In this document: positions 4,300 to 38,694 of the stretch, in pieces | Position numbering within the stretch: the stretch's first letter is position 1 | Layout: every line of letters starts with the position of its first letter | Origin: Alphaproteobacteria bacterium | GTDB lineage: Bacteria; Pseudomonadota; Alphaproteobacteria; SHVV01 | DNA length: 64,000 nucleotides | NCBI GenBank assembly: GCA_965261735.1 | Contig: OZ253470.1 | Location: forward strand, 512,001 to 576,000 | Reading direction: 5' to 3' | Notes under the pieces: generated by a model | Database searches by the model: none | Told to the model about the DNA's origin: nothing | What the model saw: the letters and a program-made list of their open reading frames with translations, nothing else | Position numbers and translations under genes: made by a program

Positions 4300-5656
4300 G
4301 TGGATCGCATGCGGAACCCGGAGGGTGAATCGGATCGGCGGCCTCTGCGGCCTTGTTTAGACCGTCGCCTGAAGCTGGAGTTCCACGGTTCACGGGTCAC
4401 GTCGGACGCCGGTCTGCTCGCCTATCGGGAACTCGATGATATCCTTGGCCTCACCGCCCTGGCGAGCAATGTCCTGGCTGACAGCCGGACGGGCAAGAAC
4501 GGCTGGCACGACGTTGTCGGACTGCTGCGTCAGTCCGTCTATGGACGTCTCGCCGGATATGAGGACGTGAACGACGCCGACCGGTTGGGGCGCGATCCTG
4601 CGATGCGGTGGATCGTCGGCGGAAAGGCCGTCGAGCGCGGCGGCGCATCGACCAGCCAGATGAGCCGCTTGGAGACCGAGTTGCTGTCCAAGGACGAGAA
4701 CCTCACCTCCCTTGCCGACCTGTCCGGGCTTTGGATCGACCGGGTTCACGACCGCCGGCCGCCGGTCAAGATCATTCTCGATATGGATTCCAGCGTCAGC
4801 CCGACCTACGGTGACCAGGAGGGCACGGCCTACAACGGTCACTTTGGCTGCACCTGTTATCATCCCCTGTTCCTGTTCAATCAGTTTGGCGACCTGGAGC
4901 GATGTCGCCTACGTCCCGGCAACGTTCACAGTGCCGATGGATGGCGCGACGTTCTGGAGCCGGTGGTAGAACGCTACAAGGCCACGAAGGTTCGGCTCTA
5001 TTTTCGCGGTGACGCGGCGTTTGCCTCGCCGGACATTTACGAATACCTCGAAGCCGAGGGCTTTCTGTATGCGATCCGCCTTCCGGCCGACACGGTTCTC
5101 CAGGAAAGCATCGCCCACCTGTTGACCCGGCCCGTTGGTCGGCCGCCCAACCATGTTCGCCGCTACTACACCAACTTCAGCTATCAGGCCGGTTCGTGGA
5201 ACAAGAAACGTCGTGTGGTTGCCAAGGTCGAATGGCATCCCGGCGAACTGTACCCCCGCGTCGGCTTCATCGTCACCAACCTGAGTCGTCCTGCCGAGCG
5301 GGTGGTTGCGTTCTACAATCAGCGCGGCACCGCCGAGCAATGGATCAAGGAAGGCAAGAACGCCATCAAGTGGACGCTTGTCCTGCCGCAAGTTCGACCA
5401 CAATGCCGTCCGGCTCCAGCTGCATGCACTGGCCTATAACCTCGGCAACTTCATGCGCACCCTGGCGTTGCCCGATTCCGTGGAGCAGTGGTCGCTGACG
5501 ACGCTGCGGGAGAAGCTGATCAAGATCGGCGCGAAGATCGTCCGCCACGGCCGCTACGTCATCTTCCAGATGGCCGAGGTCGCCATCCCGAGAGACCTCT
5601 TCGCCGACATCCTGCGCCGCATCGACCGGCTCAGACCGACGCGCACTCCGGCATGA
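4300..5656 (+). mobile_element. IS1380-family transposase with a frameshift near 5376
   Basis: VTSDAGLL, GYEDVND, LDMDSS, RGDAAF, YNQRGTAEQWIKE; the C-terminus (LSCRKF..NAVRLQLHALAYNL) continues in another frame. Element ends not resolved. Confidence 0.85.
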
Positions 5657-5870
5657 CCGACGGCATCCCGCTCATCCACGCAGACGACAGGATCGGTGCA
5701 TCTGGTATGCAGCAGAAGAGTCCGTTTGCCCCGCCACCCCCGCCAATTGTCCCTCCATCCGATGGAATCGGATTACAGGCGGCCGCAGGACGCAAGCCAG
5801 TTGCAATGCGAGCGGTTCCGAGTCACGATCAACTCGCCGATGAGGTGTCCGAAGGAGCGGTTGGGTGAGC

Positions 5871-35573: not shown

Positions 35574-35775
35574 TTGACTATAACATACTGTAACTTATAT
35601 CTTTTTTTACTCGATTTCGCAGCCTCAAAAAAAGCAGATCTCCATTCCGTGTACAAGCGGTCACCGGATTGGACTCAATGGAGGGGGTGACATGTCCACC
35701 CTGAGCTATCATTTTCCGGAATTGGCGATTGGCGCGGCCGGGTAGGAGGGGTCGTTACCGAGCCCCTCCCCCCCA

Positions 35776-37694
35776 GTTGCGGTAGGAATGCGTATTGCTG
35801 CGCACCCCCCGCGCAGATCCGGACGTGGTCGTTGAACCATCCGGCTCCTACCTCGGGTGATTGACGGCAAACCGCTGGTCCGGCCATGGGTGGCGGATGG
35901 AGGCGCGTGACCACAGGATTTCGGTTATGCGCTCCAGTCGCTTCCAACTGAATCGGGCTCGCTGGGACCGCCGGCGTAGCGCCCGCATCCACAGGCGTTG
36001 CAGCCTGCGGTGGAACGCACGGATGAACCGGCCCGACCCCGGGACGGCAAAGTAGTTGAGCCAGCCTTCGCAGACCCGCCCGAGCCACTTTCCGACCTCC
36101 CAGATGTCGTGATGCCAGCGCTTGCGAAGCACCTCATCGATGCGCGCCAGGGTCCTGTTGACCCGTTTGGCGACCGGTTTGCGACCAAGCCGAAAGCGTC
36201 CTCTCCGGGTCGTCGTGCAGTAGTGCGTGAAGCCCAGGAAGTCGAAAGTCTCCGGCTTGCCCACCCCGCGCTGGCGACGGTTCTTCACCGCGAACCGGCC
36301 AAACTCCACGAGGCGGGTCTTGTCCTGGTGGAGGCTGAGACCGAACCGGGCCAGCCTCTCCCGAACGTCGCGGAGATACCGCTCCGCATCCCGCTTGTGT
36401 TGGAACCCGACAACGATATCGTCGGCGTAACGGACGATGATCGCTTCGCCATCCGGGGCGTTCGGGCGCCATTTCTTGTCGAACCACAGGTCGAGTACGT
36501 AGTGCAGGAACACGTTCGCCAAGACGGGGGAAACTACTGCCCCCTGCGGCGTGCCCATGCCCGCGTCTGTCCATGATCCACCGTCCATGACGCCAGCGTT
36601 CAGCCATTTCCGGATCAGGCGGATGACCCGTCTGTCGCCGATGCGGTGCTCAAGGAACGTGATCAACCAATCCCTCGGGATTGTGTCGAAGTACGCCCGT
36701 AGATCCGCGTCGGCTATCCAGCTGACCTTGCGCCGTTCTATCCCGAAGGCCAGGGCATCGAGCGCATCGTGCGCGCCCCGCCCCGGTCGGAACCCGTAGC
36801 TGAAGCCAAGAAACTCCACCTCGTAGATCGGTGTCAGGATCACATCCACAACCGCTTTCTGGACGATCTTGTCCTCCAGCGCCGCGATCCCGAGCGGTCG
36901 TGTTCCGCCGTCCGGCTTGGGTATCTCTACCCGCCGAACCGGCGGCGCCCGGTACGCTCCCCCGCTGTGCAGACGCCGGTGCAGGTCGAGCAAGCGCTCA
37001 TCCAGACCTTCGCCATACATATCCCACGTGATGCCGTCGACACCCGCCGCAGCGTCCCGCTTTAGTGCGTGGAACGCCCGGTGCAGCGCATCCGGCGTGA
37101 TGTGGTGGAAGAGCGCGGTGAGATGTTCCTTCGGGTCTCTCTCCGCAGCTTTCCGTATCCGGGCCGCCGCCTGTGGCACGCTTGCCCGACACTGAGTTCG
37201 GCGCGTGCTTTGGCAATCCGAATTCCCCTTGGTTGAGGCCCTTTCCTCCGGCGACTCCGCAGAAGCTCGCGCTCCCTTGTTCGCCGCCCTCACAGGTCGT
37301 ATGGCCTCATCCGACTTCTTCAAACCGTTCATCATAGGCTTCGGTTTTCTCCATTCCCTACGCGGCCCCTTTACGACATCCGGGGCAGTTTGAAGACCTC
37401 CCAGGGTCCCGACAGAAGGCGTGCGAACGTGCATGGGTTCTCTGACACCGCGGGGCTCGCCGACATCTCACCAAAACGATGCCTGCGATGTTGCCTTCGA
37501 CCGATCTGAAAGCCTCGGCACCCCGGACCATCGCTTTTTCGATGCTCAATAGCCCTGCCCATCCGTACCGCTACCGACGCTTCGCCTGCCCCCTCGCGGG
37601 AGCCGACGCACGGCTCGCGGAGAAACGTGGTTCGGTTACTCCTTCGTTTCGGGGGACTTGCACCCCCTACCTTCTGCCAGTTCGCCTGGCGCAC
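35776..37694 (-). mobile_element. Inner group II intron (1919 nt) with RT ORF
   Basis: 5' GTGCG at 37694; DV GAGCCGGATG..CACGTCCGGATCTG; 3' end CCTACCGCAAC at 35776. Confidence 0.9.
35848..37434 (-). CDS. ltrA: Group II intron reverse transcriptase/maturase without endonuclease domain
   Basis: AAGVDG, IPKPDG..RPLGI, SYGFRPGR, GTPQG, RYADD, FDFLGF, GW.NYF; true start probably at the MMNG methionines. Confidence 0.93.
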   Translation of the reverse strand: MHVRTPSVGTLGGLQTAPDVVKGPRREWRKPKPMMNGLKKSDEAIRPVRAANKGARASAESPEERASTKGNSDCQSTRRTQCRASVPQAAARIRKAAERDPKEHLTALFHHITPDALHRAFHALKRDAAAGVDGITWDMYGEGLDERLLDLHRRLHSGGAYRAPPVRRVEIPKPDGGTRPLGIAALEDKIVQKAVVDVILTPIYEVEFLGFSYGFRPGRGAHDALDALAFGIERRKVSWIADADLRAYFDTIPRDWLITFLEHRIGDRRVIRLIRKWLNAGVMDGGSWTDAGMGTPQGAVVSPVLANVFLHYVLDLWFDKKWRPNAPDGEAIIVRYADDIVVGFQHKRDAERYLRDVRERLARFGLSLHQDKTRLVEFGRFAVKNRRQRGVGKPETFDFLGFTHYCTTTRRGRFRLGRKPVAKRVNRTLARIDEVLRKRWHHDIWEVGKWLGRVCEGWLNYFAVPGSGRFIRAFHRRLQRLWMRALRRRSQRARFSWKRLERITEILWSRASIRHPWPDQRFAVNHPR

Positions 37695-38694
37695 CAGACC
37701 CGAGCGTGCGCGATTGACGCACTCGGTTCCTCACCTGCCAGGTTCGCTCAGGATGCTTATGCTCCCTCGCCTGTTCGGCTATCCACTGCTGTTTCGTGTA
37801 CGTGTTGGTGGAACTCAGCGTTTCCTCCAGCGTTTCCCATCAGTGGGTCTGTGCAGATGACGCTCCGCTTCCCTCGAGCGGGTCCCGATGGCCACGGTTC
37901 CCCGCCTTCAGCGGTACTATCAGAGCGCTACGACTTCCTGCTCCTGCATGTCCTTCGGCTTATTGATTTCGCCAGCCGGCTCCGCAGGCGTCTGCCGGGG
38001 TTCGTGTTCGCCAAGGCGCTCCCGCCGCCATGCAGACCTGACGACGGGCCGGGGTCTGGATTGTTCACACTGGCCGTCCCCTTTCCAGCGATCTTGCCCA
38101 CGGGCAAGAGCAGGATCTCCCAGGTTCCCTGGCGGTCCATCCCGTGACTTTGCGCCGGTCCACGACCCCGGACGTCCCGTTGCGCCTCGCCATTAGCGGC
38201 GCTTCCGGTGCTGCCCACACACGATTAACAATGAAGGCGTCATCATTTACGATTTCGAGGCTTACCGCGGCGCTTCATCACCTGCTGTCTACGCTTCACG
38301 ACGGGCGTTGCCGCACGCCATGCAAGACTCGCTTCCGGCTGGCGGGCTGCGCCTTTGCCGGGCGGGAGTCGTACCCGCTGGATCGCTACGAGAGGTTTCA
38401 GCTCATGTCATCCTCCTCTCCAGGGCTTTCCCTGGCGCAATAATCGTTCGCTCAGACCGTGGAGAACCGAATTGGCGGAGGCAGGAAATATGCAGGGCAA
38501 TATCTTGAGTAAGTTGCGCGGTTCAGAGATCAGTGCGCAGAAGTCGTCACAGGCGTCGTCGTGTCAAGCCGCTTCGCGGCTCCTTCCCTCTCTGCGCAGG
38601 CACTGAATGCCTCGGTCGACCGCGCCATATGAATCGCGCGCTCGCAAAACATCAGACGGCTGAGATCTGGGCTCTGATCGATGTCCTTCTGGTA

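Follow-up and report, generated by a model that had tools for sequence, protein, structure and literature searches.

A group II intron family that recurs behind domain V of other group II introns and of its own copies

In the 64,000-nt window that we analyzed (positions 512,001 to 576,000 of contig OZ253470.1, from the alphaproteobacterial assembly GCA_965261735.1), two group II introns lie one inside the other on the minus strand. The inner intron (37694-35776) encodes a reverse transcriptase (RT), and it is inserted within the 2-nt linker on the 3' side of domain V (DV) of an outer intron (38440-35737) that lacks an open reading frame (ORF). We will call the family of the inner intron the I family, and we will call introns of the outer kind O-type. 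We propose that retrohoming gave rise to a twintron at this locus: an endonuclease-less RT intron would have been guided by pairing of its exon-binding sites (EBS1 and EBS2) into the DV end and the linker between DV and domain VI (J5/6 and DVI, respectively), and the O-type DV is likely to be its cognate home. We put the probability of this reading at roughly 0.8. A sequence-only reading of the window had suggested a lineage that is specialized on DV as a safe harbor. The idea of an intron homing into introns is partly supported: it is right in kind and overstated in degree, with recurrent DV homing and nests and no exclusive specialization.

The two introns belong to one structural family. 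The Rfam model for domains D1 to D4, RF02005, matches the minus strand twice, at 37660-37436 (170.2 bits, against a gathering score of 49) and at 38371-38156 (122.5 bits). The first of these matches, to the inner intron, covers the complete model (1-225). The DV-DVI model, RF00029, has a single match in the window, at 35849-35776 on the minus strand (36.4 bits; gathering score 40). In the alignment to this model, the inner intron has a 32-nt DV, in which the G of the AGC triad stands opposite an A and the loop is CAAC, not GNRA, and the bulged A of DVI is 8 nt from the 3' end. At its 5' boundary, the inner intron starts with GTGCG at 37694, and the preceding exon terminates in ...CGGGTCTG. The ribozyme is compact, with about 360 nt ahead of the ORF. 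The intron-encoded protein is similar to RVT_1 from Pfam (1.8e-36), it scores 21 bits for GIIM (under the 23-bit cut-off), and the comparison to Pfam found no endonuclease domain in its 495 amino acids. As for the outer intron, its own EBS1-type loop, UAAUCGU (38227-38221), pairs at 7/7 positions with its 5' exon, ACGAUUA (38447-38441), and its 3' end is defined by head-to-tail O-O junctions in the metagenome-assembled genome (MAG) G008.

Elsewhere in the same genome (G000, 4354789-4354863), the outer type is present without an insertion, and ...CGCTCGGGTCTG runs directly into TGGGGGGAGGGG, which fixes the insertion point to the base. Empty O-type copies are found in both G000 and G008, so the host is known in uninterrupted form, as is expected of a twintron. 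The second outer copy in G000 (at about 4354.8 kb) has about 1240 nt of ORF that are missing from the window's outer intron, and the window's host is therefore an ORF-less derivative. The inner intron also has a second copy in G000, at 2989574. This copy is 100% identical over 1919 nt and lies within an insertion sequence (IS) transposase gene, with CTGGATCTG and TGATTTC as its flanks. Two identical copies with different flanks, along with an intact RT with the YADD motif, suggest that the inner intron was mobile recently.

To place EBS1, the sequence-only reading had pointed to CAGATC, at 37508-37503 on the minus strand, within the loop that follows GCCGA, and this placement is correct. The strand reads GCCGA GGCU UUCAGAUC GGUC GAA GGC at 37519-37493, and the alignment to RF02005 gives a terminal hairpin loop there instead of placing EBS1 elsewhere. 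Across 13 related introns, the hairpin is conserved, with 95.6% of cells paired and with compensatory changes at 3 of the 4 pairs of the inner helix. None of 500 shuffles matched the observed covariation score, and the pairing collapses if the partner column is shifted. The predicted pairing of CAGAUC with the exon end GGUCUG, with one G-U pair, is confirmed by the sequence. Across related lineages, the aligned loop pairs with the last six bases of its own exon at 6/6 positions (counting both Watson-Crick and G-U pairs) in 15 of 17 cases, as compared to 1.5% of cross-pairings. Examples of these combinations include CAGUCC/GGACUG, CGCAUC/GAUGCG, CAGACG/CGUCUG, and CCGUCC/GGACGG. As a control, lineages that are 91-92% identical over the 5' 360 nt and have another EBS1 (CAGUCC or CGCAUC) are found at non-intron sites that fit their own EBS1. 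Similarly, the close lineages L030 and L021-23, with other EBS1 and EBS2 sequences, occupy non-intron sites that match their own guides.

The 3' end of the outer DV, along with the linker, contains both intron-binding sites (IBS) for the inner intron: IBS1 is GGUCUG (37700-37695) and IBS2 is CGCU (37706-37703). The aligned EBS2 segment pairs with the exon at about -13 to -7 in many relatives, with 5/5 pairs in 5 of 17 lineages versus 8.5% of cross-pairs. We then compared the window's subfamily (at least 95% identity over the first 150 nt and EBS1 CAGAUC) to its sister subfamily in G008. EBS2 is AGCG in the former and GACG in the latter, which are two adjacent substitutions in identical alignment columns. 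In the local O-type hosts, the two positions of the 3' strand of DV that pair with these bases (exon -10 and -9) are different as well, with ...CGCUCGGGUCUG versus ...CGUCCGGAUCUG. EBS2/IBS2 is thus AGCG/CGCU in the window's subfamily and GACG/CGUC in the G008 subfamily, in the same exon register (-12 to -9), and each combination of EBS2 and host yields 4 + 6 pairs. In this two-substitution change, the guest and the catalytic domain of the host intron compensate for one another.

The sequence-only reading also gave GAUCUG as the end of DV in many group II introns. According to the alignment to RF00029, the final UG is the J5/6 linker and lies outside of DV. The rest of the statement fits this intron class; the general Rfam consensus is GGUUCuG. 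We collected 139 more distant loci (at most 65% identity) from a scan of metagenome contigs, and we used them solely for a tally of DV ends and for a negative control. A regular expression, which itself demanded G-N-T-[CT]-N-G, found 108 DV ends in these loci. These were GATCTG in 87 of the 108 and GTTCTG in 15, so the target is class-wide. In the inner intron, a UG (35815-35814) directly follows DV, which gives the intron a perfect IBS1 of its own, and this DV is the one that is occupied in the self-nested copies of G009. In the negative control, among 45 5' ends of distant relatives, the DV expression matched only L045, which belongs to the I family itself, and L076, whose match is not a hairpin by eye; this control is partial, as 5' ends were found by pattern in only 41 of the 139 loci.

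Given these pairings, we propose the following mechanism. An active, RT-encoding, endonuclease-less intron of the I family would have reverse-spliced into the sense strand of an O-type intron, between the UG of J5/6 and DVI, with insertion through DNA retrohoming. The target would be chosen by RNA-DNA pairing: EBS1 CAGAUC would pair with the last four bases of the 3' strand of DV and the UG, and the partner of EBS2 AGCG would be CGCU, located on that strand four bases further up. Because the target stretch is conserved in the whole class, the family could enter several types of introns as well as its own copies, which would lead to nested arrays. Splicing of such nests would be sequential and could proceed only from the innermost copy outward: in that copy, DV adjoins DVI, and its excision would rejoin these two domains in the copy that surrounds it. 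The cognate home site would most likely be the O-type DV, and copies at non-intron GRTCTG sites would be ectopic retrotranspositions. Intron interiors would persist as sites because insertions there cost the host nothing.

To examine where the family inserts, we listed all of its 5' ends in five further genomes, which were reached via the first loci, and we fetched 170 nt around each. For the window's subfamily, across five genomes, 15 of 56 5' junctions lie directly after a DV and UG (11/14 in G009, 2/10 in G011, 1/29 in G010, 1/2 in G000, and 0/1 in G012). These represent four types of DV and five sequence variants: the family's own DV (8 junctions), the O-type DV (4 junctions with two sequence variants, in G000, G009, G010, and G011), a third type (2 junctions), and a fourth type (1 junction). 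The sister subfamily in G008 is 90% identical and starts with GTGTGCC. We scored 40 of its 89 candidate junctions, and found 28 at an O-type DV, 12 in head-to-tail tandems, and none elsewhere. Specialization on DV, as the sequence-only reading had it, therefore describes the scored junctions of the sister subfamily, and it fails for the window's own subfamily. Most copies with this EBS1 (41/56) are at non-intron sites, and the second copy in G000 is in a transposase gene. The tabulation of 5' flanks that had been suggested as a check gives a similarly divided answer: DV ends are enriched over the expectation from sequence, yet non-intron sites are in the majority.

Head-to-tail tandems, in which a 3' end is joined to a 5' end with no exon in between, account for 12/40 junctions in G008 (such as L320, L317, and L321) and for 5/40 in G004 (L174, L180, L186, L191, and L200). 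Re-entry at an occupied 5' junction, which would still have intact IBS1 and IBS2, would explain them.

To quantify the enrichment, we used the genome of the window as the background. On both strands, G000 has 5279 sites that match G[AG]TCTG, and 5 of these are DV ends. If CG[CT] is also required at -12 to -10 (CG[CT]N3G[AG]TCTG), then 362 sites remain, of which 5 are DV ends. We counted each sequence variant of DV only once, which gave 5 variants among 43 distinct flanks. The probability of at least 5 DV variants is 7e-10 given the 5279-site background or 3e-4 given the 362-site background. These results support the view that insertion of the family behind the DV of other introns is much more frequent than would be predicted from sequence matches.

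Nested arrays, which the sequence-only reading had anticipated, are present in G009. The 5' ends there are spaced by 1881 nt, which is the length of the intron minus the 38-nt DVI, and up to six DVI segments are stacked. For instance, L311 contains three D1-DV units in series and the DV end of a fourth, followed by four stacked 38-nt DVIs; the sequence that we fetched, at the end of the contig, does not include the 5' part of the fourth unit. L314 and L315 have stacks of five and six DVIs, respectively, and both have fewer 5' units remaining, as expected if recombination erodes the nests. The outermost copy is at a non-intron site in one array (L312/L253) and at the third type of DV in another (L310/L241). 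Because several arrays reach contig ends, nests are probably under-assembled, and this may bias the results for G010. In a three-layer nest, the outermost copy (L253 or L027:664, in G009:C31) starts with TTGCG, not GTGCG. If real, this start should block that copy's own splicing.

Several observations weigh against our reading. First, the enrichment at DV depends on the true length of the target: with a 13-nt motif copied from DV, 5 of 16 sites in G000 are DVs and the enrichment is gone, in a test that is circular. Also, the background is derived from G000 alone, and copies within introns may simply survive better. Second, available targets are often empty: just one of the five matching DV ends in G000 is occupied, and the own DVs of all 29 copies in G010 are unoccupied. 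The 41 non-intron junctions of the window's subfamily are at diverse GRTCTG sites (38 distinct flanks). Third, junction counts are not counts of independent events, as recombination can give rise to further copies of arrays and of twintrons; this holds for the copies in G008 as well. The O-type twintron that is common to G000, G009, G010, and G011 may have been inherited or transferred as a unit. Fourth, the nested arrays are known from MAG assemblies, and several of them end at contig ends. Finally, beyond the two subfamilies, the support for EBS2 is moderate, and neither splicing nor mobility was observed directly.

Some of these points would fit a promiscuous retrotransposon with survival bias. 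Such an element would insert at any short GRTCTG, with a weak IBS2 and no adaptation to DV, and DVs would be in surplus because insertions into dead or selfish introns are neutral while insertions into genes are purged. Indeed, the 38 distinct non-intron flanks share little besides IBS1. Their positions -6 to -1 (G37 R37 T36 Y38 T38 G38) are the complement of CAGAUC with G-U pairs allowed, which in turn supports the placement of EBS1. The flanks are otherwise unrelated, apart from weak preferences for G at -7 and for C/G-G-Y at -12 to -10. Such an element would also account for the 28 of 29 copies in G010 that are outside of introns, for the matching DV ends that are empty, and for a host intron in the window that has no ORF. 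It does not explain why EBS2 changed at two positions in step with the host DV, why none of the 40 scored junctions in G008 are outside of O-type DVs or tandems, or how self-nesting reached six layers in G009. We consider this explanation to be rather unlikely.

The same non-intron flanks bear on whether the family recognizes a DNA stem-loop (the DV hairpin) and a short IBS1, as class C introns do with terminators. The ribozyme is compact, DV is a hairpin, and hairpins can be seen by eye in several of the non-intron flanks. But for the 45 nt upstream of each of the 38 non-intron sites, folding is not improved over that of shuffled versions of the same flank (mean z of -0.12, p = 0.45), and the difference in folding from 1500 control GRTCTG sites in G000 is marginal (p = 0.059, with higher G+C). 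Furthermore, the six-pair IBS1 is partly within the stem of DV, and the EBS2-IBS2 pairing of 4-5 bp covaries. Given the lack of excess folding, the 6-bp IBS1, and the covarying EBS2, we rejected hairpin targeting, which seems highly improbable.

Alternatively, the twintron might move or multiply as a unit, through composite retromobility, segmental duplication, or tandem duplication. Most of the DV junctions would then go back to a single ancient insertion into DV, or to a few of them. The same O-type twintron is found in four genomes. In G008, 7 of the 14 O units that we parsed follow another O head to tail, and a rarer variant of EBS1, CCGAUC, is confined to one variant of the O flank (4/4). 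Two further results from G008 count against our reading: O and I have diverged to a similar extent (2.2% and 2.5%), and there is a weak correlation between their distances (Mantel r = 0.31, p = 0.06). We computed the Mantel test from the first 330 nt of O, as an earlier version with 400 nt upstream aligned ORF-deleted and full hosts together and gave an inflated O distance of 0.24. On the other hand, one tandem array in G008 has an empty O unit between occupied ones, and O units carry 0, 1, 2, or at least 3 inner copies, which can be full-length or 730-nt and ORF-less, in hosts that are full-length or ORF-less. The empty unit and the varying number of guests per host would speak for separate insertions in G008. 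Entry into four types of DV (five sequence variants), self-nested arrays that require repeated insertions, and the empty O-type copy in G000 are also difficult to reconcile with a moving unit. Overall, we think that unit mobility is quite unlikely as the main explanation, and we prefer retrohoming into DV.

Retrohoming into DV also has a stronger form, in which the I family lives as a dedicated parasite on other group II introns. The O-type DV and J5/6 would be its cognate home, EBS2 would co-evolve with the host's DV, and a nested array would act as a launch pad. We propose this tentatively, at a little short of even odds. If it is true, then the lineage hops between intron families and into itself by targeting the class-wide conserved end of DV, and the transcript of a self-nested array would release an active lariat from each layer, starting with the innermost. 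Guides that read the most conserved piece of the ribozyme would have a target that every relative must keep. With such guides, nested arrays, tandem arrays, and intron-rich islands could all arise in a simple way. There is a conflict as well: because the guest separates DV from DVI, the host intron would depend on the guest's splicing. The locus offers a natural, sequence-defined case for studying sequential inside-out splicing, mobilization across families, and the cost of an EBS1 that is complementary to the intron's own DV end.

Bacterial group II introns are thought to survive in harmless places, such as terminators or IS elements, with a few known examples in other introns. In the psbF twintron of Euglena, said to have been described by Copertino and Hallick in 1991, the internal intron reportedly lies within domain V of the external one, and its splicing has to precede that of the latter. 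That is a single organellar case, while here we have a mobile bacterial lineage with arrays.

Homing of introns into introns is already known. In Methanosarcina acetivorans, according to a review, group II introns home repeatedly and site-specifically into other group II introns, and form nests up to five deep (PMC4424553). These nests have non-coding surroundings and are eroded by recombination, and they are described as "a perpetual homing site" (PMC4424553). Judging by the title of the work cited for them (Dai and Zimmerly 2003), the Methanosarcina introns home into the ORFs of related introns, in domain IV (DIV). The site of the I family is not inside the host's ORF: it is downstream of it, at the 3' strand of DV and the J5/6 linker. 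Also unlike what is outlined for Methanosarcina, the I family's target is a sequence of the ribozyme core, found in 87 of 108 relatives from its class, and one family enters several types of introns and itself.

For the twintrons of Thermosynechococcus elongatus, both composite and separate mobility are discussed, and divergence of EBS sequences retargets introns (Mohr, Ghanem and Lambowitz 2010, PMC2882425). In the portion of that paper we refer to, an ORF-less intron lies between the first two ATGs of the host's ORF in DIV, and nested arrays are not reported. In contrast, the guest in our window bears an ORF and splits the host's DV from its DVI, so it must disable the host until it is spliced out. 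In plant mitochondria, a "hypermobile" group II intron inserted into its own copy and into another intron (Zumkeller et al. 2020, PMC7049729). As summarized there, these were single organellar events at other internal positions (such as nucleotide 652, or DIV), and the inner introns no longer splice. Here, the target is recurrent and is defined by the pairing of EBS to DV. A twintron in D1 is known from Trichodesmium. In the literature that we searched, we did not find a description of a lineage whose guides read the 3' strand of DV and J5/6, though an earlier description is possible.

Table 1. Features of the nested introns, in window coordinates
Feature	Position	Strand	Description and basis
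Inner group II intron	37694..35776	minus	1919 nt, GUGCG...CCGCAAC; RF02005 and RF00029 matches, second identical copy, empty site
Proposed EBS2, AGCG	37535..37532	minus	In single-stranded stretch CGAAAAAGCGAUGGU, after CGAAA; pairing of the aligned segment in relatives
EBS1 hairpin	37519..37493	minus	Loop UUCAGAUC, EBS1 CAGAUC at 37508-37503; covariance-model alignment, covariation of the hairpin, covariation of the loop with the 5' exon
Intron-encoded protein (P0001)	37335..35848	minus	495 aa, RT and maturase; YADD present
Inner intron DV	35847..35816	minus	32 nt, GAGCCGGAUGG...CCGGAUC; RF00029 alignment
Inner intron DVI	35813..35776	minus	38 nt, bulged A 8 nt from the 3' end; RF00029 alignment
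Outer (O-type) intron, 5' part	38440..37695	minus	D1-D3, ORF remnant, and DV; begins UUGCG (TTGCGCC at 38440); RF02005, 122.5 bits
Outer intron DV	37729..37697	minus	GAACCGAG...CUCGGGUC, then J5/6 UG at 37696-37695; sequence, alignment with the inner DV and the empty copy, pairing registers
Outer intron DVI and 3' end	35775..35737	minus	UGGGGGGGAGGGG...CCUACCCGGC; contiguous with DV in the empty copy

We also examined four metatranscriptome runs. In three of them (X17, X18, and X19), we found a joint that skips 35772-37694. Three different letters (TCG or TCA) stand at this joint, and its sides are short, with 37, 18, and 18 letters. Because empty O-type copies exist as DNA, we do not take this joint as splicing: it is indistinguishable from transcripts of empty copies, and the letters at the joint differ. 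The highest summed contig depth in the four runs (up to 1726 in one) was at window 37378-37665, which is the 5' ribozyme part of the inner intron. Contig depth sums over relatives and is no measure of expression, and two of the four runs are labeled as sponge metagenome.

The intron-encoded proteins of class D (RmInt1-like) introns have a C-terminal motif, LX3AX3PXLF[V/A]HW, in the excerpt of the report we cite (PMC4615759). We did not see this motif by eye at the C-terminus of P0001 (...IRHPWPDQRFAVNHPR).

All of the O-type introns that we saw (window 38440; L025:658; L322:91 and 4033; L324:3918 and 5942) start with UUGCG, not GUGCG. Also, the O-type DV has AAC in place of the usual AGC, with the middle A opposite a G; in the I family, it is the G of AGC that stands opposite an A. 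Because full-length, ORF-bearing O copies are abundant in G008, these oddities look like traits of the family and not decay. The 5' exon of the outer intron (window 38441-38470, minus strand) contains CTGAGCGAAC, and the same sequence is found just upstream of the O-type DV (37740-37760). This could be a remnant of a further O-type copy, or it could be due to chance. A match to the fluoride riboswitch within the outer intron (19.8 bits; gathering score 34) we regard as chance. The surroundings of the locus contain fragments of recombinase and transposase genes.

Elsewhere in G000, at 425788-425858, there is a DV-DVI match of another kind (GAACCGCCGUGUACGG..., 32.8 bits for RF00029), which we presume to resemble class C introns with a CGC triad. 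G004, from the same family as G000, has a related intron that is 71% identical and starts with GAGCGCC. It is present in at least 40 copies, most of which follow the repeated site ...GACGAGACCGGCTGG, and a second type of intron in G004 follows ...GGGTCGATATGGAG. Both of these insertion sites are repeated sequences and may be IS elements. Finally, L313 (G009:C24, at about 5009-5680 of the reverse complement) contains another ORF-less intron, 73% identical at its 5' end, which is six bases downstream of the I site. It splits the 5' strand of the same host's DVI, between ...UGCGGG and GUGCGCCGG..., and might represent a second lineage that targets the DV-DVI region.

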